Source of the DNA: Candidatus Saccharimonadales bacterium
GTDB lineage: Bacteria > Patescibacteriota > Saccharimonadia > Saccharimonadales > UBA10212
Assembly (NCBI GenBank): GCA_049521895.1
Contig: JBEKOJ010000001.1
Location: 354,717-418,716, forward strand
Direction: 5' to 3'
Length of the DNA: 64,000 nt
Under the pieces are notes generated by a model. It did not search any database. It was not told where the DNA came from and saw only the letters and a list, made by a program, of their open reading frames with translations. Positions 1,670 to 9,659 of the stretch are shown here, in pieces. Every line of letters begins with the position of its first letter. The first letter of the stretch is position 1. Position numbers and translations under genes: made by a program.

Positions 1670-3301
1670 TTGAGTAAGGTCGCGCATTATTTACAAGAGC
1701 ATCTGTTGGGGGAAGTGACTGATAGCCCTGAGGTACGTCGGTATTTCTCTCAGGATGCCAGCATTTTGCGCCTAGTGCCGTCTATTGTGGTCTACCCCAG
1801 AAACGAGAGTGATGTGCGCAAGACTGCGCGCTTTAGCTGGCAGTTAGCGGAACGCAAGCGTATCTTACCTATAACTGCCCGCGGCGGCGGCAGCGACACC
1901 TCCGGTGCGGCTATTGGCAGCGGCATTTTGCTGGTCTTCACCACCCACATGAACAAAATCCTGACACTGGATCCGCGCAAAAATTTTGTAACTCTGGAGC
2001 CGGGAGTTACTTACGATAAGCTGGAGCAAACCCTTTATACGCACGGGTTATTTTTGCCTCCCTACCCCAGTTCCAAGCAATACGCTACTATTGGCGGCGG
2101 CCTAGCTAACAATGCCATGGGCGAAAAATCAGTTAAGTATGGTTCTATTGGTGACTATGTGGAACGATTAAGAATTGTACTGACTAACGGCGAGGTTGTT
2201 GAGACCGGTCCTTTGGGCAAGCGTGAGCTTAACCGCAAGCTCGGCTTATCAACTTTTGAAGGCGAGATTTATCGCGGTTTGGACAAATTGCTGGAAGAGA
2301 ATGCTGATTTCATCAAGCGTGAGAAAGGCCAGATAAAGACCCGCTGGAATGCCGCTGGATATAACATTTTTGACATCAAAAAGAAGGGTCATTTTAATTT
2401 AACACCCTTGATTTTGGGCTCACAAGGTACGCTAGGTATCATTACTGAAGCAACTTTAGGAGTGGTCGCCTACAATCCCAGGACCTACTTACTGTTGGCA
2501 AGCTTGGACAACTTGGAAGCTATGGATGGGATTATACCCAAGATACTTGAGCTTAAGCCCAGCAGTTTTGAGATGATAAACCAGGCTGCCATAGGCCACG
2601 TCACAATGATCAGCCCGCCTCAGTTATCGGGGCTGCTGGAGAACCCGGCGGCGGTTATACATTTGTTTATCGAGTTTGATAACCTTAAAGATAGCAGCCA
2701 GAAACACAGCATAAAGAAAGCTAAGAAAATTATCGAGCAGGCTGGCGGCCACACGCAAATAACAAATAATCCTAACGCCCAGGAAAAACTTTGGAAAGTC
2801 CGGCAAAGCGTAGCCACAATTTTAAGCGAACCCCAGAATCAGGCCAAAGCCGTGCCCGTAGCCGAAGATATTAGCGTGCCAACCGATCGTTTGGTGGAGT
2901 TTTTGCAGCGAGCCTCGGCAATTTATGAGCAAAATGGACTGACGGCTAGCGCGTGGGGACACGCTGGTGACGGTATCGTCCGTATGCAACCAGTGTTAGA
3001 TTTATCACAACTGGGCGATAGACAGAGGTTATTTAAGCTAGCCGATTCTATGTACGATTTAGCTATCGAACTGGGGGGATCCATAACCGCGTCTGCGGGC
3101 GACGGCCGGGTACGCAGCCCTTATAGCCGTAAGCTCTACAGTAGCGGTCTGCATGACATAATGCTGCAGGTCAAGAAAATTTTTGACCCGCACGGCATCC
3201 TCAATCCCGGCGTAAAAACGGCCACCATGGACGATGTCCGGGCTTTAATGCGCAGTGATTACAATTTGGGCCATCGCCACGAGCACCTGCCGGGAAGCTA
3301 A
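1670..3301 (+). CDS. FAD-binding oxidoreductase (GlcD / D-lactate dehydrogenase family)
   Basis: 543 aa, TTG start; N-terminal FAD-binding PCMH-type region (RGGGSDTSGAA) plus C-terminal FAD-linked oxidase-like region. Confidence 0.75.
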   Translation: MSKVAHYLQEHLLGEVTDSPEVRRYFSQDASILRLVPSIVVYPRNESDVRKTARFSWQLAERKRILPITARGGGSDTSGAAIGSGILLVFTTHMNKILTLDPRKNFVTLEPGVTYDKLEQTLYTHGLFLPPYPSSKQYATIGGGLANNAMGEKSVKYGSIGDYVERLRIVLTNGEVVETGPLGKRELNRKLGLSTFEGEIYRGLDKLLEENADFIKREKGQIKTRWNAAGYNIFDIKKKGHFNLTPLILGSQGTLGIITEATLGVVAYNPRTYLLLASLDNLEAMDGIIPKILELKPSSFEMINQAAIGHVTMISPPQLSGLLENPAAVIHLFIEFDNLKDSSQKHSIKKAKKIIEQAGGHTQITNNPNAQEKLWKVRQSVATILSEPQNQAKAVPVAEDISVPTDRLVEFLQRASAIYEQNGLTASAWGHAGDGIVRMQPVLDLSQLGDRQRLFKLADSMYDLAIELGGSITASAGDGRVRSPYSRKLYSSGLHDIMLQVKKIFDPHGILNPGVKTATMDDVRALMRSDYNLGHRHEHLPGS

Positions 3302-3303
3302 AG

Positions 3304-3549
3304 ATGTACACATTTATAGGAATTATTGGGGCAATTTTGGTGCTGTTTGGTTTTTATCGCATCAGCATCGGCAAATGGACTGGCAAATCGCGCTTGTATG
3401 AACTGGACAATCTGGTTGGCGCGGTCATGATTACAATTTATCAGCTGCACTTTAGGGTTTACGTAACGGTAATATTGAATATCATTTGGGCTATAGTCGC
3501 CCTGCATGGCTTAACATCTTACAGGGAACGCCGCCAAAAACGCAAATAG
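3304..3549 (+). CDS. small integral membrane protein, function unknown
   Basis: 81 aa, starts 3 nt after upstream stop, three hydrophobic helices, basic C-terminus. Confidence 0.45.
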   Translation: MYTFIGIIGAILVLFGFYRISIGKWTGKSRLYELDNLVGAVMITIYQLHFRVYVTVILNIIWAIVALHGLTSYRERRQKRK

Positions 3550-3635
3550 TGGTGGGCGAGGTGGGATTCGAACCCACAACCCCTTTCGGGGCACGGATTT
3601 TAAGTCCGCTCTGTAAACCATTCCAGCACTCGCCC
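3550..3635 (-). tRNA. tRNA-Leu (anticodon TAA)
   Basis: Reverse complement folds as GGGCGAG..CTCGCCC-A-CCA, anticodon loop CTTAAAA, long variable arm, T-loop TTCGAAT. Confidence 0.85.
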
Positions 3636-3709
3636 TGGAGGCGCGTACGGGTAATGCTCCCGTCTAATGGGTTTTGCAGACCCATGCCTAACTTCTCGGC
3701 CAACGCGCC
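3636..3709 (-). tRNA. tRNA-Cys (anticodon GCA), non-canonical T-loop
   Basis: Acceptor GGCGCGT/ACGCGCC 7/7; anticodon stem TGGGT/ACCCA with loop CTGCAAA; T-stem ACGGG/CCCGT; discriminator U73 plus CCA. T-loop is AGCATTA rather than TTCRAnn, and the D-loop lacks GG. Confidence 0.6.
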
Positions 3710-3749
3710 ATCGTCGGAACACCGACAAGGACATAACAATTATATACCA
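3710..3749 (-). promoter_or_regulatory. promoter (TGgTATATAAT) plus short leader hairpin ending in GTTCCGACGAT before tRNA-Cys
   Basis: Minus-strand read: TGGTATATAAT-tgttatgtcctt-GTCGG-TGTT-CCGAC-GAT followed directly by the tRNA 5' end. Confidence 0.45.
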
Positions 3750-3837
3750 GATATCCACATCTATTAGTTGCGCAAATGCCAAATAAGAGCTATTGTTTAG
3801 ACACAATCATTAAAAAGTGGTGGGCTAGGAGGGTCTA

Positions 3838-3969
3838 ATGGAAGTCGTCTGGCAATGGAACTCGCCCATCGCGCTCAGTATCTTCTTTGTGGGTATGACA
3901 TTGAGTCTTGCCTTAGTCAGCTGGGCATTAAAAACATTCAGAGACATCGGTCCGCCCCGCCGCCGCTAA
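3838..3969 (+). CDS. 43-aa small membrane protein (below the ORF-track length cutoff)
   Basis: GGAGG 6 nt upstream of ATG; MEVVWQWNSPIALSIFFVGMTLSLALVSWALKTFRDIGPPRRR; one TM helix with basic tail; palindrome and terminator follow. Confidence 0.5.
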   Translation: MEVVWQWNSPIALSIFFVGMTLSLALVSWALKTFRDIGPPRRR

Positions 3970-3988
3970 AGTTAAAGCGCTTTAACTT

Positions 3989-4022
3989 AAAAATCTCGCT
4001 CACAGCTTGGGCGAGATTTTTT
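3989..4022. terminator. intrinsic terminator, bidirectional shape
   Basis: AAAAATCTCGC-tcacagcttgg-GCGAGATTTTTT. Confidence 0.6.
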
Positions 4023-4150
4023 GGTACAGCAAGTGAGTAAAAGTTTACACCTTATTAGAGACGAGATGGTTCGTTGAAGGAAGACATTAGATATTTTTTT
4101 ATCAAGAATACCTATACACTAAACCCCATTGAGTAAGAGCAGTGAGTTAC
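4021..4150. repeat. intergenic repeat family, copy R-a (degenerate)
   Basis: TGGTACAGCAAGTGAGTAAAAGTTTACACCTTATTAG... aligns with 6464-6595 and 7170-7304. Confidence 0.55.
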
Positions 4151-4222
4151 GTGCTTAGAGCCATTGTTGAAACGAAGGAACGGGGCGTTGTAAGTACTTG
4201 CCAATGGGAATAGAATTTTATT

Positions 4223-4807
4223 ATGAAAAGAAGCTTGGCTCTGTTTTTTGTAGCTGTATCTATAGTTATTTTGTTTACCCCAAACTTAGTTAGGGCGCAG
4301 AGTGCTTCGGATGCTTTCAGCCAGTACACTGACCCTCATGCCATATGCGATTACTACAGGAGCGGCCAAGCAGATATCACGACGGCCAACGGTATAGTTC
4401 ATCCTGTTATCGAAAGAGAATCAAATAACGAATGCTTGGTTAGCATTGGGTCTGGTAAGTCAAAAACCTTCACTCAATACTATTATTCTGGGGATAACTG
4501 GTGCTACAAACTTTATTCAGGAAGCGAGGTTGTTTCTAGTTTATGCGTCCAAAGACCGAACAAATCTATAGATCTTACGAAGTATAAATCTTATATCATC
4601 GGCGGGGTGATAGTATTCGCCTTCGTTATTACCATGGGCGCTATATCTGGTAACAAACCACCCGTTATCCCCGAACAGCCAGCAACCGAGAATACCCCGA
4701 CATACAGCCAACCCAAGTCAGTTCGTAGCAAGGTGGCGAGGCCCAAAAAGAGAGGCCGCATCTGGCCTGAGCTCAGTCGCTGGCTCAAGCTCGGCCGCAA
4801 AAAATAG
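4223..4807 (+). CDS. secreted / C-terminally membrane-anchored hypothetical protein
   Basis: 194 aa; signal peptide ending VRAQS; Cys-containing ectodomain; one TM helix near the C-terminus; Lys/Arg-rich tail. Confidence 0.6.
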   Translation: MKRSLALFFVAVSIVILFTPNLVRAQSASDAFSQYTDPHAICDYYRSGQADITTANGIVHPVIERESNNECLVSIGSGKSKTFTQYYYSGDNWCYKLYSGSEVVSSLCVQRPNKSIDLTKYKSYIIGGVIVFAFVITMGAISGNKPPVIPEQPATENTPTYSQPKSVRSKVARPKKRGRIWPELSRWLKLGRKK

Positions 4808-4827
4808 CAGGTTTCTACCCCGGGATG

Positions 4828-4856
4828 AAAAGAACACCTGTACAGGTGTTCTTTTC
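4828..4856. terminator. intrinsic terminator
   Basis: GAAAAGAACACCTG-ta-CAGGTGTTCTTTTC. Confidence 0.7.
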
Positions 4857-4872
4857 AAGAAGCTTGCGATAA

Positions 4873-4902
4873 TGGCGCAGTAAGTAGGAAAAAGTTTACA
4901 CG
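4873..4902. repeat. intergenic repeat family, copy R-b (short)
   Basis: TGGCGCAGTAAGTAGGAAAAAGTTTACACG matches the 5' block of R-c/R-d. Confidence 0.45.
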
Positions 4903-4974
4903 AACTAACGCAGCACCACGGCCAGAAGGCCGTAAGATCATACGCTGACTAAATCAGATACGGGTCTAGACCTA

Positions 4975-5685
4975 TTATTGAATCAGTGTGGACGTGGCCG
5001 GCGCTGTGATTGTGACTGATTCATAGGACACAGTCATGTCAGTGGTGGCACCAGCGCTATCTTCTGAAGTTAGACTCTGAAGCCGGTAGTTCTTGGTGTC
5101 AAACCAGAAGAATGTAGTTGTGCCAGTTTGAGTCGGATCAACTTCTTGATACTTGTAACAAGTTAATGTTCCACAGGAAACCTTACTGATGTAGTTATAT
5201 TTCACCTTTTTGGCAGCTTGGGTTTTGAAGTCAGGCTTAAGACTATCGCCAGGGTTAGTCACAGCTGGCGCGGACGTAGATCCTGCAGCGTATCTGTACC
5301 AAGTCGTGGTATTTGGAAGTTCAACATAGGTCGTTCCGGCAGATTTAATGATATCACCTGAAGAGGTGATGTATGAAAGTCCGCCATTACCATCAGATTC
5401 AATCGTTATAGTATCGGCACTGCCGGATTTAGGGGTCGTTTTGATGACTAGCTTATATGGCTTGTTAGTTAATGTGAAAAGGGCGCCAAAATCACAGAGC
5501 TTGGTATCGTTATACGATTTCAAGCAGCTGCTTTGAACAACTTTTTGAGCGGCATTGAGCTTTGGGCTAGAGTTCTTCTTCCATACTACCCAGCCAACTA
5601 GGCCGATGACGACAATCACTGCGATTACTAATAATAATTCTAAGGAATGAAATCCTTGCTGATTTTTACGGAGTTTGCGGTTCAT
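4975..5685 (-). CDS. type IV pilin-like protein (prepilin N-terminal cleavage/methylation motif)
   Basis: Start moved to MNRKLRKNQQ (GAGGTGG upstream); QQG/FHSLE with Glu at +5 followed by a hydrophobic helix; variable C-terminal domain with Cys pair. Confidence 0.7.
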   Translation of the reverse strand: MNRKLRKNQQGFHSLELLLVIAVIVVIGLVGWVVWKKNSSPKLNAAQKVVQSSCLKSYNDTKLCDFGALFTLTNKPYKLVIKTTPKSGSADTITIESDGNGGLSYITSSGDIIKSAGTTYVELPNTTTWYRYAAGSTSAPAVTNPGDSLKPDFKTQAAKKVKYNYISKVSCGTLTCYKYQEVDPTQTGTTTFFWFDTKNYRLQSLTSEDSAGATTDMTVSYESVTITAPATSTLIQ

Positions 5686-5787
5686 GATTTGCCCACCTCG
5701 CTTATGTTTACTTAAGGATAACTGTACTCTGCCTGTGTAGTAAGTCAATAGAGATGGTTATAACCCCTATGGCAGGCTATTAACAAT

Positions 5788-6393
5788 CTAGTATGCGGTT
5801 AGGTGGTTTACTATGTTAGCGAAATCTTGGGTGGTCTGTGTTTGGAGTGCAGTATCGTCGCACTCATTTGAAGCATCAAAATATATGTAATAATAGTTCC
5901 CCACTTTTGAGTAAGCGGGTGGCAGGGTGTTAGATGCTGCAAAATCTTGGCTGAGATATTCCTGCGCAGCCTCTGGAGTAGGGCTTTCTGGCGCGACATT
6001 GTCTGTTGGTAAGTACTTGCCTATATACCCCGCTGCACCGGCTGCAGTCGTACACATTGATGGACCGCCAGCATTGAGTTCAGCCGAACTAACATTCATT
6101 CTGTTTGATGAACTACTGTCTGGTTGATATTGAAGTGTCAAGGAACCACTGTATGGTGCCCTAACGCTCCATTGACTTATGGTGAAGTAATTAACGGCGG
6201 GTGTCGCAGTCTTTGTAGGCGAAGCAGCGGTTTTTGATGGAGCTGAGCTATTAGCTGCGGTAGTTGAAGTCGTTGCCTTGTGATGGTTCTTGTACACCAT
6301 CCAACCGACTACACCCAGCAGCACAACAATTATTAAAACTAACAGTATCTCAACTACTCCAAAACCCTGTTTATTTTTTTTCAATTTAGTCAT
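5788..6393 (-). CDS. type IV pilin-like protein
   Basis: MTKLKKNKQG/FGVVEILLVLIIVVLLGVVGW: Gly-Phe cleavage site, Glu+5, hydrophobic helix; S/T/A-rich linker. Confidence 0.7.
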   Translation of the reverse strand: MTKLKKNKQGFGVVEILLVLIIVVLLGVVGWMVYKNHHKATTSTTAANSSAPSKTAASPTKTATPAVNYFTISQWSVRAPYSGSLTLQYQPDSSSSNRMNVSSAELNAGGPSMCTTAAGAAGYIGKYLPTDNVAPESPTPEAAQEYLSQDFAASNTLPPAYSKVGNYYYIYFDASNECDDTALQTQTTQDFANIVNHLTAY

Positions 6394-6424
6394 TTTGGTT
6401 TAAGCATAAGCTTAGAGATAATTT

Positions 6425-6458
6425 TTTGCAACAAATAGACCCCTTTTCTACAGAGGCC
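6425..6458 (-). terminator. terminator-like hairpin at the end of repeat R-c
   Basis: Minus strand: GGCCUCU-guagaaa-AGGGGUC followed by a U-rich tract. Confidence 0.4.
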
Positions 6459-6463
6459 AAAGT

Positions 6464-6595
6464 GCTTATGCTTGGTGCAGTTAGTGGGTAAAAACTTACA
6501 CGCTATTAGGGATGAGATAGTTCGCTGGAGGAAGATTTTGGAAGTGCCGTATCAGGAGTACTTGTTGGGTAAGTAAGAGTTGGAAATTACACCGA
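6464..6595. repeat. intergenic repeat family, copy R-c
   Basis: GCTTATGCTTGGTGCAG...CGCTGGAGGAAGATTTTGGAAGTGCCGTATCAG...; first 14 nt equal the tRNA-Gly 3' end plus trailer. Confidence 0.7.
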
Positions 6596-7114
6596 CTAAA
6601 AACCCTTAACACTCCTAAAAGTTCTTTCACCTACCTTATCTCTACCTGTATAGAACAGTTGCTCTTTTTCCTCATTAAGATATGCAGCTATGATAGTGCC
6701 AAAGAATACGTAATGGTCAGCTGGCTTAGCATAGCTATGCAGACGACACTCAAAGTTCACACGAGCGTCGGCGAGTAGCGGTGTTTTACCAATAGTACCT
6801 GGAAGGGTAGCAATGCCTGATTCTGCAAATTTATCTACATCTGCTCCGCTTACAGAACCAAAGTACTCTAATTGGCGACGTAATTCAGGACTTGGCACAG
6901 CAATGACAAACTCCTTGCTTTCTAGAATCAACTTATGGGTGTTATTTGTATCTTGCAATGCTACCGCCAGTGTGGGCGGTTTGTATGAACACTTCATATT
7001 CCAGCCAGCAGCCATGCCGTTTGGCTTACCATTAGCGTCAACTGAAAGCACAAAAACAGTTGGTTCAATTAAACTACGTCTCATTGCATATACAATATCG
7101 GTCTGGGGTTTCAT
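6596..7114 (-). CDS. flavin reductase-like (FMN-binding split-barrel) protein
   Basis: 172 aa with the length and pattern of the flavin reductase domain family (NGMAAGW...FVIAVP). Confidence 0.7.
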   Translation of the reverse strand: MKPQTDIVYAMRRSLIEPTVFVLSVDANGKPNGMAAGWNMKCSYKPPTLAVALQDTNNTHKLILESKEFVIAVPSPELRRQLEYFGSVSGADVDKFAESGIATLPGTIGKTPLLADARVNFECRLHSYAKPADHYVFFGTIIAAYLNEEKEQLFYTGRDKVGERTFRSVKGF

Positions 7115-7138
7115 GGCTATAGCATAGCAAAACTAACA

Positions 7139-7164
7139 GAAAAAGACCCCTTATCACAGAGGTC
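7139..7164 (-). terminator. intrinsic terminator at the end of repeat R-d
   Basis: Minus strand: GACCUCU-gugaua-AGGGGUC-UUUUU. Confidence 0.55.
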
Positions 7165-7169
7165 ATATT

Positions 7170-7304
7170 GCTTATGCTTGGTGCAGCAAGTAGGAAAATC
7201 TTTACACCTTATCAGGAATGAAATGGCTCGCTGGAGGAAGATTTTGGAAGTGCCGTATCAGAAGCATCTACTAGCTAAGTAGGAGTTGGGGGTTACACGA
7301 GTAG
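7170..7304. repeat. intergenic repeat family, copy R-d
   Basis: Aligns along about 135 nt with R-c, including a 34-nt perfect block CGCTGGAGGAAGATTTTGGAAGTGCCGTATCAG. Confidence 0.7.
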
Positions 7305-7318
7305 TAAGTGGTTCGATT

Positions 7319-7978
7319 CTATTGCTTATAGAAGGACTTAGCTATCAGTAAAGCGGTTTTAGCATCAGTCGAACTAAACCAACTATCTGCCTGAGTTGCC
7401 GTAAACTGTGTATTAGTATTGTCGTATGCCGCCAAAGATGCCGAGCTGCTCCCTGATGTGTAATCCAAGTACCCTACATTATCCGTTGTGCTACCGCTAG
7501 TTAATGAGTACTGCTGAATAAGTGTAGAATCTATCAGATAGTAAATCGGTGTATTTGTGGCAGTATAGTAGCCGCCAACCACCTTTAAGGCGGAATTGGA
7601 TTTTGCGAGCGAGTCAATACTTGTTGTATGGAAAGTCTGGGGTCCCCCAAAGTCAGATGAAGGATTAGAATACACTACCTGAACTGATTTTGATGGATTT
7701 TCGACTTGTGTATTAATAGAAACACCGCTTGTGAGCGTCCAATCCGACGGATACTGAAAACACTCTTTGGTACTTACATTGCAGTATGTTTTCCAGCCAG
7801 TATATGGATTCGCTTCAGTGGCCGCGGTCGCTGCACTTGTGCTGCTTGCAGTATTAAGAGTTTTGTCTGTGACGTTCTTAGTATGATAGACATACCATCC
7901 TATGAAACCTATCAAACCAATGATAATTACGATGAGCAATCCTTCGATTGCCCCGAATCCTTTTTGATTGTTTTTCAT
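7319..7978 (-). CDS. type IV pilin-like protein
   Basis: MKNNQKG/FGAIEGLLIVIIIGLIGFIGW: Gly-Phe site, Glu+5, hydrophobic helix. Confidence 0.7.
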   Translation of the reverse strand: MKNNQKGFGAIEGLLIVIIIGLIGFIGWYVYHTKNVTDKTLNTASSTSAATAATEANPYTGWKTYCNVSTKECFQYPSDWTLTSGVSINTQVENPSKSVQVVYSNPSSDFGGPQTFHTTSIDSLAKSNSALKVVGGYYTATNTPIYYLIDSTLIQQYSLTSGSTTDNVGYLDYTSGSSSASLAAYDNTNTQFTATQADSWFSSTDAKTALLIAKSFYKQ

Positions 7979-8017
7979 AAATCAATAGTACCAGAAATAT
8001 ACGAAAACACTTATGCT

Positions 8018-8094
8018 TGGTGCGGGTGACGGGACTCTAACCCGTGGCCTCTTCCTTGGCAAGGAAGCGCTCTAAACAACTGAGCTACACCCGC
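8018..8094 (-). tRNA. tRNA-Gly (anticodon GCC), atypical D- and T-loops
   Basis: GCGGGTG..CACCCGC-A-CCA, anticodon loop TTGCCAA; D-loop AGTTGTTTA lacks GG; T-loop is TTAGAGT. Confidence 0.8.
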
Positions 8095-8231
8095 GCTTTT
8101 GCCATTTGGCAAAAGCAATTATCAATTATCAATTTACATCTTTCAATGAATTATCAATGACTAATGCTCAATGAAAAGTTAATGACAAATGATAACTGCT
8201 AAATGTTAAATGCTTTGGCTTAGGCCAAAGC

Positions 8232-8307
8232 TGGTGGCGCCTCTCGGACTTGAACCGAGGACACAAGGCTCTTCAAGCCTCTGCTCTACCAACTGAGCTA
8301 AAGCGCC
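8232..8307 (-). tRNA. tRNA-Phe (anticodon GAA)
   Basis: GGCGCTT..GAGGCGCC-A-CCA fold, anticodon loop TTGAAGA, canonical GG D-loop, T-loop TTCAAGT. Confidence 0.85.
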
Positions 8308-8390
8308 TCGTCGGAACCGACGTTCGATTTCCATAAGCGCGTAAGAACTTGCTTACTTCCAACCTCAGGTCGTTCCCTCCTCTCAATTTT
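8308..8390 (-). other. conserved structured 5' leader (copy L2) abutting tRNA-Phe
   Basis: Sense: AAAATTGAGAGGAGGGAACGAC...GTCGGTTCCGACGA; about 75% identical to L1. Confidence 0.6.
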
Positions 8391-8471
8391 GCAAAGTATT
8401 GCTAAAACGGAACTTCGCAAAATTGTTAAGCTGCAAGAAATATTTTACGGGATTACCTCTGTTTATTCAAG

Positions 8472-8894
8472 TCATGTGGGCGGCCAGATAAAGTCTACGC
8501 AGGTTTTTATGGTCCCCTCGTCAGCAGCAAAATCTAGAGATAAAAATTCATCTCTGGTGACAAACTTGGCTGCTTTCATGTCGCCAAACTTGAAATCAGT
8601 GCTCTTAAGTTCAACTGGCATTGCCACGCGAAGTATCATCCAGCCGTGTACGCTTTTCCCGCGGTATATAAAGGCCACTTGGCCGATTTTTTCTACTTCA
8701 ACCCCTAGCTCTTTCATAATTTCACGCTTGAGACAATCTTCTATGGTTTCATCGTGTTCAAGCCCACCACCAGGTATCTCCCAACCAGTGTTGCTCTCCT
8801 CGCCTGCCCCGACTAGCAATTGCTGATGCTCATCTAGGATAATTGCCTTGATTGTGCCCCTGTAGAAGGGGCTAGGTAATTTGCTCAAGTCCAT
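8472..8894 (-). CDS. NUDIX hydrolase
   Basis: Nudix box GGGLEHDETIEDCLKREIMKELG. Confidence 0.8.
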   Translation of the reverse strand: MDLSKLPSPFYRGTIKAIILDEHQQLLVGAGEESNTGWEIPGGGLEHDETIEDCLKREIMKELGVEVEKIGQVAFIYRGKSVHGWMILRVAMPVELKSTDFKFGDMKAAKFVTRDEFLSLDFAADEGTIKTCVDFIWPPT

Positions 8895-8897
8895 TTT

Positions 8898-9659
8898 TTA
8901 TTTCTTTTCGCGTTCCAAGAAGTTTTTTACGCTCTCGAGCGTGTCCATAAACTGGGCCGGAAAGACGATAGTGCTATTTTTTTCGTCGGCAATCTCGGTT
9001 AAGACCTGAAGGTTGCGTAGCTGCAAGGCGATTGGGTGTTTGGCGATAATATCGGCGGCATCGCCCAGGGCGCCAGCGCTTAACTTCTCGCCTTCAGCGG
9101 TAATAATTTTAGCGCGCTTCTCACGCTCGGCCTCGGCCTGTTTGGCCATAGCTCTCTGCATGGTATCTGGCAATTGGATATCCTTTAGCTCGACAGTGCT
9201 GACAAAAATCCCCCATTTGGCGGTTGCCCCGTCTAAGATTTTTTTGATTTTTTCATTGATAGCGATCGTTTGGCTTAAAACTTCGTCTAGCGAACTTTGC
9301 CCAACAACATTGCGAATGGTAGTCTGGGCAATCTGGTAGGTAGCACTTAGAACGTTCTCTATCTCGACTATCGATTTTATGGGGTCGCTGACTTTATAGT
9401 AGGCTACCGCCGCCACGCCGATAGAGACATTGTCTTTGGTGATGATTTTTTGGCTCTCGATCGGCAGAGTTACAATCCGCAAACTGACTTTGCGCATCTG
9501 GTCAACCAAGGGGATTATGAAGCGTAGACCCGGCTGCTTAATGTCTGGGCGCAATTTGCCCAGCCTGAAGATCACGCCTCTTTGATATTGGTTGACGATT
9601 CTGACTCCGGCCAAAACTAAAAGAACCACGATAACCGCTAAAACCAAAAGTGCCGCCAT
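8898..9659 (-). CDS. SPFH/band-7 (stomatin-like) membrane protein
   Basis: N-terminal TM, PHB domain pattern, C-terminal coiled AEAEREKRA segment. Confidence 0.8.

Follow-up and report, generated by a model that had tools for sequence, protein, structure and literature searches.

In the staphylococcal cassette chromosome (SCC), serine recombinases insert DNA at the 3' end of one conserved gene, rlmH (orfX), and serial insertion gives arrays with direct repeats. Many SCC units, which are tens of kilobases in size, have no recombinase and rely on its supply in trans, and the Ccr recombinase genes do not span the attachment site. The SSV1-type archaeal integrases are tyrosine recombinases of archaeal viruses and plasmids, with attP located inside the integrase gene, which undergoes a major split. 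In Streptococcus thermophilus, the integrative and conjugative elements (ICEs) and cis-mobilizable elements (CIMEs) depend on a tyrosine integrase that targets the 3' end of fda, and the autonomous elements are conjugative. In the tycheposon islands of Prochlorococcus, the recombinase is of the tyrosine type in 910 of 937 elements, and replication modules are found on many (bioRxiv 10.1101/2020.12.28.424599). Here we describe a locus in a 64,000-nt stretch of the genome of a Candidatus Saccharimonadales bacterium (contig JBEKOJ010000001.1, positions 354,717 to 418,716; assembly GCA_049521895.1), which we call the window. Positions 3989–8023 of the window very probably constitute an additive genomic island that is seeded by a tRNA-Gly(GCC) gene and was built by small integrative elements carrying a large serine recombinase (LSR), with a repeat family, R, that represents the tails of LSR genes. 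Loci in other assemblies are referred to below by L numbers and proteins by P numbers.

The tRNA-Gly(GCC) gene lies on the minus strand (8018–8094), encodes its CCA end and was identified by both ARAGORN and Rfam (73.5 bits). Its last six nucleotides, GCACCA (8018–8023, minus strand), form the attachment and crossover block and are followed directly by the trailer AGCATAAGT (8009–8017, minus strand). On the opposite strand, a profile of R recovers four copies in the window, all in a single orientation. Two of these, R-d (7178–7300, plus strand; nhmmer E = 4e-33) and R-c (6472–6596, plus strand; nhmmer E = 8e-34), are relic 3' ends of LSR genes, as identified additionally by translation and tblastn. 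Both have near their start the core TGGTGC, which is GCACCA read on the other strand (plus-strand positions 7179–7184 in R-d and 6473–6478 in R-c). On the minus strand, each core is followed by the trailer AGCATAAGC, a terminator-like hairpin and a T run (7140–7177, hairpin at 7145–7164, for R-d; 6434–6471, hairpin at 6438–6458, for R-c), and the 8–9 nt next to the core are the same as those next to tRNA-Gly. A first-pass annotation of the window had reported that the tRNA 3' end and its trailer are copied in the repeats, and the copy is indeed exact in R-c and R-d. The count of four copies given there also holds, while the repeated unit is larger than was proposed and includes the trailer and the hairpin. 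Specifically, the 15-mer GCTTATGCTTGGTGC is found exactly at 6464 and 7170 and with one mismatch at 8009 (three matches versus 0.19 expected; three were reached in one of 100 shuffles), R-c and R-d are 78 per cent identical over 152 nt with the post-core hairpin included, and they have in common an exact 31-mer that occurs nowhere else in the window (0 expected).

The farther a copy lies from the tRNA, the less intact it is. R-d and R-c are both intact; R-b (4872–4902, plus strand; nhmmer E = 1e-4, profile positions 2–31) is a stub in which the 30 core-proximal nucleotides are left and the core is degraded to TGGCGC; and R-a (4021–4150, plus strand; nhmmer E = 3e-21), the oldest and a degenerate copy, has a stop after 18 codons and a core degraded to TGGTAC. 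Such decay is expected if new DNA enters at the tRNA. Terminator-like hairpins were detected on the minus strand after R-d, R-c and R-a by a terminator scan, and the hairpin and T run after R-a (3989–4021) mark the distal end of the array. R-d and R-c are 76 per cent identical to one another, and each is closer to copies in other genomes. Because these two copies are not closest relatives and the pilin-like genes beside them resemble one another only at their N-termini, the units appear to have been acquired separately and not duplicated in place.

Read on the strand opposite the tRNA, R consists of a 34-codon frame and approximately 20 further conserved bases. The frame, xTG GTG CAG.., translates as VQQVGKSLHLIRDEIARWRKILEVPYQEYLLSK followed by a stop (15 copies from 11 genomes) and is open in 22 of 27 near-full copies; in the window it reads LVQQVGKSLHLIRNEMARWRKILEVPYQKHLLAK plus stop in R-d (7178–7282, plus strand, with the conserved post-stop motif continuing to 7300) and LVQLVGKNLHAIRDEIVRWRKILEVPYQEYLLGK plus stop in R-c (6472–6576, plus strand). 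Conservation follows the codons: third positions are less conserved than the other two (0.74 versus 0.86 and 0.88), arginine is kept through switches between CGN and AGR codons, and leucine is kept through switches between TTR and CTN. Most copies of R have TTG, GTG or ATG as their first codon. All four bases occur before TGGTGC, and hence the apparent start codon is unconstrained. A reading of the repeat as a coding fragment of a recombinase goes beyond those offered by the first-pass annotation.

Conservation does not end with the frame. The approximately 18 nt after the stop (GAGCTGGGAGTTACAC, reading stop-ELGVTL; 7283–7300 in R-d and 6577–6596 in R-c) are as conserved as the coding part. 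This motif resembles the core-proximal GGGTAAAAGTTTACAC, and the two together correspond to the pair of submotifs that had been described in each repeat; both submotifs are present, with spacers of 7 and 9 nt instead of 8–10. The post-stop motif is present in all R copies in L006–L015 and L021, and in two database open reading frames (ORFs; P0011 and P0014) the stop before it is replaced by a sense codon. The motif could serve as an accessory binding site, or it may act as a –35-like element or as a readthrough signal.

The origin of R is apparent from LSR genes found at the same tRNA. In L003, a 6.4-kb insert encodes a 522-aa LSR with a match to Pfam Resolvase (E = 3e-10), a match to Pfam Recombinase just below threshold (E = 1e-3) and a sub-threshold XisF-like match over its whole length. 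The LSR gene adjoins the tRNA, runs on the opposite strand and reaches its stop codon inside the tRNA. The protein has 611 homologues at E ≤ 1e-10, and we inspected the C-termini of the best 120 and searched these 120 with a profile of R. By the source names given, almost all of the 120 are from Saccharimonadales or Patescibacteria. Approximately 105 of them either end in (L/M)VRVx(G/R)L plus stop or run on as ..GLKPLASSLARKRSIN plus stop. Both kinds of ending are the antisense translation of tRNA-Gly, with variable residues that track variants of the T-stem, which implies that the family is almost always found integrated at tRNA-Gly and in one orientation. The overlap of LSR gene and tRNA is directly visible in L003 and L023.

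Three homologues run from the same (L/M)V into an R-type tail instead. P0105 ends ..SHLVHYAELFLHEIRDELTRWRIILAVPYREHLSSK (residues 519–544 of 544 match the R profile, E = 3e-9), P0051 ends ..ALLVHQIEKSFHSIREEYTRWRSLLNVQYREFSGIR (residues 514–543 of 547, E = 6e-6) and P0114 ends ..LLVHPKGLSLHPLRGEIARWRALTEVKFAEYLANE (residues 521–547 of 549, E = 2e-3), each followed by a stop. The profile was made from 13 genomic R peptides only (E-values at Z = 1e6), and among the 120 LSRs it matched nothing other than the extreme C-termini of these three. Conversely, tblastn of the tailed LSRs against the window gave matches to R-c and R-d only: the P0105 tail matches R-d at 7202–7279 (E = 2e-5), and the P0105 and P0051 tails match R-c at 6472–6573. 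The reading phase through TGGTGC is identical in the L003 LSR and in all R copies, and recombination of the tRNA-side junction with any intact R would therefore restore a complete gene. In an AlphaFold2 model of P0105 (mean predicted local distance difference test score of 77.6), the catalytic and recombinase domains and a zinc ribbon bearing a long coiled coil precede a disordered linker (residues 500–518) and a single terminal helix (residues 519–543), which is the R tail.

The linker is encoded by NKK and palindromic codons (for example, KKDAEAS, KKDTEVS and KKDLPETEKS). On the tRNA strand, these codons give a hairpin and a T run starting approximately 13 nt past the CCA, which the terminator scan detects in L003; the LSR-encoded hairpin may terminate transcripts of the tRNA operon. 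The 3' stretch of the LSR gene combines three overlapping features, namely a protein-coding sequence, an attachment site and an antisense terminator-like signal. Two small conserved genes accompany the LSR gene in L003 (L003:13275-14179) and L021 (L021:737-1612); one encodes a 75–86-aa protein with ..LAxLIYD.. and the other an 81–99-aa helix-turn-helix protein with a weak excisionase-like match (E = 0.035), and both proteins are candidate directionality or regulatory factors.

Insertion at the tRNA is directly visible within the population. Among conspecific contigs, defined as those encoding proteins identical to the products of the window's neighbouring genes, there are three haplotypes at the junction between tRNA-Gly and the adjacent pilin-like gene (pilin 3). 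Most contigs are identical to the window. The 6.4-kb insert with the LSR is present in L003, L018, L019 and L031, which come from two independent samples, and L030 has a 1159-bp insert that carries no recombinase, contains a TIGR02391 (Hypoth_Ymh) gene and is bounded by CGCACCA. Both inserts start right after GCACCA of the tRNA and end in (C)GCACCA, which is followed by the window's AGCATAAGT and pilin 3; specifically, the 6.4-kb insert sits between ..CCGCACCA on the tRNA side and CTGCACCA on the other, the latter continuing into AGCATAAGT and pilin 3. A comparison of empty and occupied sites within one population shows that GCACCA alone is duplicated, and all three haplotypes differ at the tRNA-proximal junction. 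The comparison across related genomes that the first-pass annotation had called for reveals, in conspecific contigs, differences in insert content exactly at GCACCA, and together with same-orientation R arrays in other Saccharibacteria it supports the serial accretion of cassettes at a tRNA attachment site that was one of its two readings. Its statement that no integrase is present is true of the window, where tblastn of LSRs finds no LSR body anywhere in the 64 kb and no recombinase is located in or beside the island; the cognate LSR occupies the same site in other members of the population.

There is an R copy within the L003 element itself (E = 9e-28), and the insert, composed of an LSR unit that ends in R and a unit with a phosphodiesterase/PglZ-like gene, looks like a composite. 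No primase, helicase or polymerase matches were found in the L003 element. An apparent disruption of the LSR gene in L019 was dismissed, as the sequence is identical to that of L018 and the gene was merely not called. Near the distal end of the array region, L030 contains an IS1595 transposase gene and two further ORFs.

Joined forms of the split gene exist as well. The contig L021, which encodes P0051, is 5409 bp long, lacks a tRNA and has a 30-bp terminal repeat; an ORF continues in frame across its ends and fuses the LSR to an R tail, as in a circle, or a tandem copy, with the attP configuration. In L022/L023, a tandem array begins with tRNA-Gly and a 519-aa LSR with the tRNA-derived tail, continues with cargo and an R that is fused to a second, 544-aa LSR (P0105), and then with further cargo, including Mrr-like nucleases, and another R. 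By these comparisons, the elements have the LSR domain set (in the L003 LSR and the P0105 model) and precise insertion at a single site with short identity, and the island combines a full-length tRNA, internal att repeats, element integrases specific for that tRNA and variation next to the tRNA.

A degenerate 29-nt pattern of the core-proximal part of R was scanned against one genome per species (185,579 species, 596 Gb). The pattern occurs at 10 loci, compared with approximately 0.3 expected by our own estimate from base counts. Nine of the loci are labelled Saccharibacteria, and the tenth, L014, is a contig of a 'Binatia' metagenome-assembled genome that has the gene order of the window; its 'Candidatus Binatia' label is probably a binning error. 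In five loci, R lies 0.7–2.3 kb 3' of tRNA-Gly(GCC), with its orientation relative to the tRNA matching that in the window, and the DNA profile finds two to six same-orientation copies per locus at a spacing of 0.4–2.4 kb. Approximately 30 copies retain the core-proximal end; most of these end in CTGCACCA, and nearly all are followed within approximately 50 nt by a hairpin and a T run. The left end made of AGCATAAGC, hairpin and T run follows at least 10 R cores in five genomes, and it is also present directly after tRNA-Gly in the window, L012 and L009. More generally, several genomes have AGCATAAG(C/T) after the tRNA itself as well as after many internal R cores, in most cases together with a related hairpin. 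We considered AGCATAAGC and its hairpin as the native trailer and terminator of tRNA-Gly and rejected this, because they recur at internal junctions as well as at the tRNA in several genomes.

The L014 locus is rearranged. Relative to window positions 8018–8307, L014:6277-6654 has the same flanking genes with the tRNA-Gly and its array inverted relative to tRNA-Phe, an arrangement that implies an inversion, one that has a breakpoint in the attachment region of tRNA-Gly; the block from Band_7 to tRNA-Val is also rearranged. Directly after tRNA-Gly (L014:6655-6700), the tRNA strand reads ..CCAAGTAGTCAATTTACAC.. and then forms a hairpin, which is an inverted R core-proximal motif such as might be expected of the other half-site of an attachment site.

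We propose the following model for the island. The attachment site of the element is located inside the recombinase gene, approximately 34 codons before its stop, and recombination with the GCACCA end of the tRNA splits the gene. The body of the LSR gene is left beside the tRNA in antisense orientation, terminating inside the tRNA as ..(L/M)VRVx(G/R)L plus stop, and the NKK codons and palindrome just before the crossover supply, on the tRNA strand, a hairpin and T run that should take over as terminator of the tRNA operon. R, which comprises the last 34 codons and approximately 20 nt of 3' flank, is stranded at the far end of the element as its arm of attR. Later insertions at the tRNA would push earlier units outward, recombinase bodies would be lost and cargo kept, and the R copies would decay with distance. 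On this reading the window holds four units, carrying pilin 3, the flavin-reductase-like gene, pilins 2 and 1, and ORF194. Of the parts of the model, the match of R to the LSR tail, the geometry of the split gene, the polymorphic insertions at the site, the circular or tandem junctions and the occurrence across genomes are direct observations, and the sequence of events, the origin or movement of units without a recombinase, termination at the hairpins and any part played by the tail are inferred.

The split may also have a function. Only the excised form would make the full protein with the terminal helix, and the integrated form would have the tRNA-derived 5-residue tail. Gene splitting could on this basis act as a switch of directionality or activity, and intact R scars could serve as alternative excision ends that restore the LSR and capture cargo, in analogy to integrons; we regard this extension as speculative and give it a minority share of our confidence. 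If it were true, the island would be a serine-recombinase analogue of integrons that shuffles pilin and other surface or defence genes among Saccharibacteria.

Several observations count against this account of an LSR-built island. The conserved post-stop motif is left unexplained by it. Standard LSRs recombine attP with attB only and are not predicted to insert beside an occupied tRNA, which presents an attL-type site, yet tandem arrays require such insertion. Only three of the 120 LSR homologues have the fused tail. A search with a padded R consensus of 41 aa gave 16 short ORFs and no long protein; the fused tails have diverged too far to have any 5-mer in common with the consensus, and they were found only through the LSR search. 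The circularity of L021 rests on a terminal repeat of k-mer size, which is also expected from a tandem duplication, and excision and recombination are proposed here from assembled sequence. There is no recognisable R at the outer right end of the L003 insert or at the right end of the L030 insert. Lastly, the same AGCATAAG(C/T) stands after R-d, R-c and the tRNA, which simple serial insertion of complete elements does not predict; it suggests either recombinase-less units with a conserved left end of their own or the pick-up and drop-off of neighbouring units.

This shared sequence can be read in more than one way. It may be the conserved left end of non-autonomous units that are moved in trans, or a decayed stub of the LSR 3' end, given that the LSR encodes KK and a hairpin at that position; the similarity of the trailer to LSR 3' ends at the DNA level is suggestive only. 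Elements may also gain neighbouring units by excising at an R farther from the tRNA and shed them by excising at one closer to it; the L003 insert has the look of such a composite. Carried further, the first possibility would make each recombinase-less unit (trailer, hairpin, cargo and R) a mobile cassette that is excised as a small circle and reinserted in trans by an LSR elsewhere in the population, similar to the traffic of integrons and SCC. The conservation of both unit ends, with the recurrent left end of AGCATAAGC, hairpin and T run, the small size of the units (0.7–1.6 kb in the window) and the 1.16-kb recombinase-less insert that is polymorphic at the tRNA all agree with such cassettes. 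We nevertheless consider them an outside prospect, roughly one to be kept in mind and not to be expected: no small cassette circle was seen, LSRs, which are not known to recombine an attR-type site with attB, would have to do so, both R and the conserved left end are missing from the L030 insert, and the trailer is equally explicable as a decayed LSR 3' stub with KK and a hairpin in the same position.

Three other explanations were considered. That R is an independent gene for a 34–35-aa protein, present once per unit and expressed in place from the xTG or from the GTG of the core, with a secondary likeness to LSRs, accords with an open frame conserved at the protein level, with the 16 such short ORFs annotated by gene callers and with the TTG, GTG or ATG at its start in most copies. 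It is nonetheless improbable, since the first base of the start codon takes all four values, no ribosome-binding or promoter-like site is located upstream, distal copies decay in place (the stop in R-a and the stub of R-b), in circular and tandem forms the frame runs on from the LSR body with no change of phase through TGGTGC, and conservation extends past the stop. The other reading of the first-pass annotation, a 3' untranslated region (UTR) or small-RNA module shared by the pilin transcripts, fits the position of R between the stop of an upstream minus-strand gene and a terminator-like hairpin, where it is probably transcribed as a 3' UTR. This reading is very improbable: a permissive Rfam search of positions 3000–9000 found only tRNAs, the folds are no better than those of shuffled sequences (z-scores of –1.1 to +1.0 for the repeats and –1.7 to +1.0 when segments of core plus hairpin are included), RNAalifold on 19 copies from 11 genomes gave –2.2 kcal/mol with five invariant and no covarying pairs, R also follows the flavin-reductase gene and an oppositely oriented ORF and not pilins alone, and substitutions are patterned by codon on the opposite strand. 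Local tandem duplication of a pilin gene and its spacer beside the tRNA, without a mobile element, would account for three pilin-like genes and repeated spacers in one orientation. We give it next to no credence, as the pilins are 26 per cent identical at the N-terminus only, the genes carried between repeats are not related, each of R-c and R-d is nearer to copies in other genomes, and LSR insertions are polymorphic at the site.

The island in the window lies among tRNA genes on one strand. According to ARAGORN and Rfam, tRNA-Phe is located upstream of tRNA-Gly, and tRNA-Cys and tRNA-Leu(UAA) are located approximately 4.3 kb downstream; tRNA-Cys (3636–3709, minus strand) forms the distal boundary of the variable region, and an array like that of the window sits between tRNA-Gly and tRNA-Cys in L012. 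The GC content is 0.40–0.45 in the island versus 0.48–0.52 in its flanks. From tRNA-Gly outward, the order is pilin 3, R-d, hairpin, flavin reductase, R-c, hairpin, and pilins 2 and 1, continuing towards tRNA-Cys with the R-b stub, a palindrome, ORF194 in opposite orientation, the degenerate R-a and its hairpin. The presence of three pilin-like genes, a flavin reductase and a four-copy repeat family 3' of tRNA-Gly(GCC), as first annotated, was corroborated by ARAGORN, Rfam, Pfam, a motif scan and the R profile.

The three pilin-like ORFs have a prepilin-type N-terminus of the form G/FxxxE followed by a hydrophobic helix, and a motif scan found them to be the sole such ORFs in the 64 kb. Pilin 3 (7319–7978, minus strand, 219 aa), the cargo of the tRNA-proximal unit, starts 39 nt past the tRNA and has the N-terminus MKNNQKG/FGAIE; pilin 2 (5788–6393, minus strand, 201 aa) has QG/FGVVE; and pilin 1 (4975–5685, minus strand, 236 aa from its ATG) has QG/FHSLE. 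All three thus show a class III signal peptide (G before F or M, Glu at +5 and a hydrophobic N-terminal helix). Their matches to family models are sub-threshold and N-terminal (N_methyl, PRK10506 prepilin peptidase-dependent protein and GspG), with weak sub-threshold N_methyl and GspG matches for pilin 2, a weak prepilin match for pilin 1 and no above-threshold family match for pilin 3. The assignment as pilins is based solely on the N-terminal motif, the Pfam and NCBIfam matches being below threshold. Prepilin-type genes recur in other genomes, in which the cargo between R copies varies (L008, L012 and L015, with two in L015). The spacer and pilin N-terminus directly after tRNA-Gly in L012 are very similar to those of the window. 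The similarity of pilin 3 to this tRNA-adjacent L012 pilin is confined to the N-terminal 49 residues, and orthology of the two was dropped; their C-terminal domains are unrelated. No terminator-like hairpin was found between the CCA of tRNA-Gly and pilin 3 (7979–8017), and pilin 3 may be co-transcribed with the tRNA-Phe/tRNA-Gly operon from promoter-like sites at 8177–8118. The AT-rich spacer between the two tRNA genes (8117–8192) is built of short direct repeats (AATTATCAAT and TCAATGA..AATGAC units) and overlaps these promoter-like sites.

The remaining cargo is diverse. The second unit carries the flavin-reductase-like gene (6596–7114, minus strand, 172 aa; Pfam Flavin_Reduct, E = 2e-30). 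ORF194 (4223–4807, plus strand, 194 aa), the cargo in opposite orientation, encodes a signal peptide, a membrane helix and a basic tail; every conspecific contig has it annotated as a gene, and scans with family models gave no match. Next to it, after R-b, is a perfect 16/16 palindrome with flanking A and T runs (4826–4857) that is terminator-like in both directions. The LSR elements (L023:1896-7122 and L003:14261-17981) carry two Mrr-type nuclease genes and genes for an 813-aa protein with an SEC-C motif, a proteasome-like (Ntn) protein and a phosphodiesterase/PglZ-like protein. This cargo is suggestive of defence functions; PADLOC gave no match among seven proteins (four from the L003-element cargo, the L030 insert gene product, the window's flavin reductase and ORF194).

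Little has been described of mobile elements in Saccharibacteria, or in the candidate phyla radiation (CPR) generally, and the LSR family reported here is widespread, with nearly all of its best 120 members locked to one tRNA. Our literature searches found no description of such a system in Saccharibacteria. To our knowledge, an LSR whose integration swaps its own C-terminus is new, and we know of no other coding sequence that serves at once as attachment site and as a putative antisense terminator of its target tRNA. The 125-nt R scar is a marker of past insertions that delimits cargo units in metagenome-assembled genomes, and the LSR tail, as a possible control of directionality, is relevant to recombinase biology and tools. 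An LSR-built island would also explain a hypervariable locus with pilin-like genes. Pilins are thought to set host specificity in the episymbiotic Saccharibacteria, and clade-specific pilins have been noted in a pangenome study (PMC7739484).

In its overall layout, the island resembles integrons, with ordered arrays of small, mostly single-gene units in fixed orientation that share a site and enter at one end. It is not an integron, since it has no IntI-type recombinase, insertion occurs at the end of a tRNA instead of attI, and R shows no conserved pairing and no attC-like fold. Similar to tycheposon islands, it has a full-length tRNA as its seed and transient elements that enter at the tRNA-proximal end (bioRxiv 10.1101/2020.12.28.424599), as well as cargo and degenerate pieces between partial-tRNA repeats and a heterogeneity among strains that is highest beside the tRNA. 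It differs from them in its LSR, in the lack of detected replication genes in the L003 element, in its host, a member of the Saccharibacteria (CPR), and in a repeat that is a 125-nt recombinase coding fragment and not merely a tRNA fragment. With the ICEs and CIMEs it shares non-autonomous, att-bounded units in tandem with autonomous elements, on whose composite excision such units can ride along. The likeness to SCC, including ccr-less pseudo-SCC, lies in serine-recombinase arrays at one gene end, with direct repeats and recombinase-less units; here, however, the target is a tRNA, the recombinase gene spans the attachment site and the units are far below tens of kilobases. The closest parallel to the split gene is offered by the SSV1-type integrases, in which the attachment site likewise lies in the recombinase's own coding sequence, integration into a tRNA splits the gene and the piece split off is left to mark the element's other end. 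In contrast to those enzymes, the bacterial LSR described here is deprived of no more than 34 C-terminal residues, which form a helix behind a disordered linker, and gains a 5-residue tail that is encoded antisense to the tRNA.

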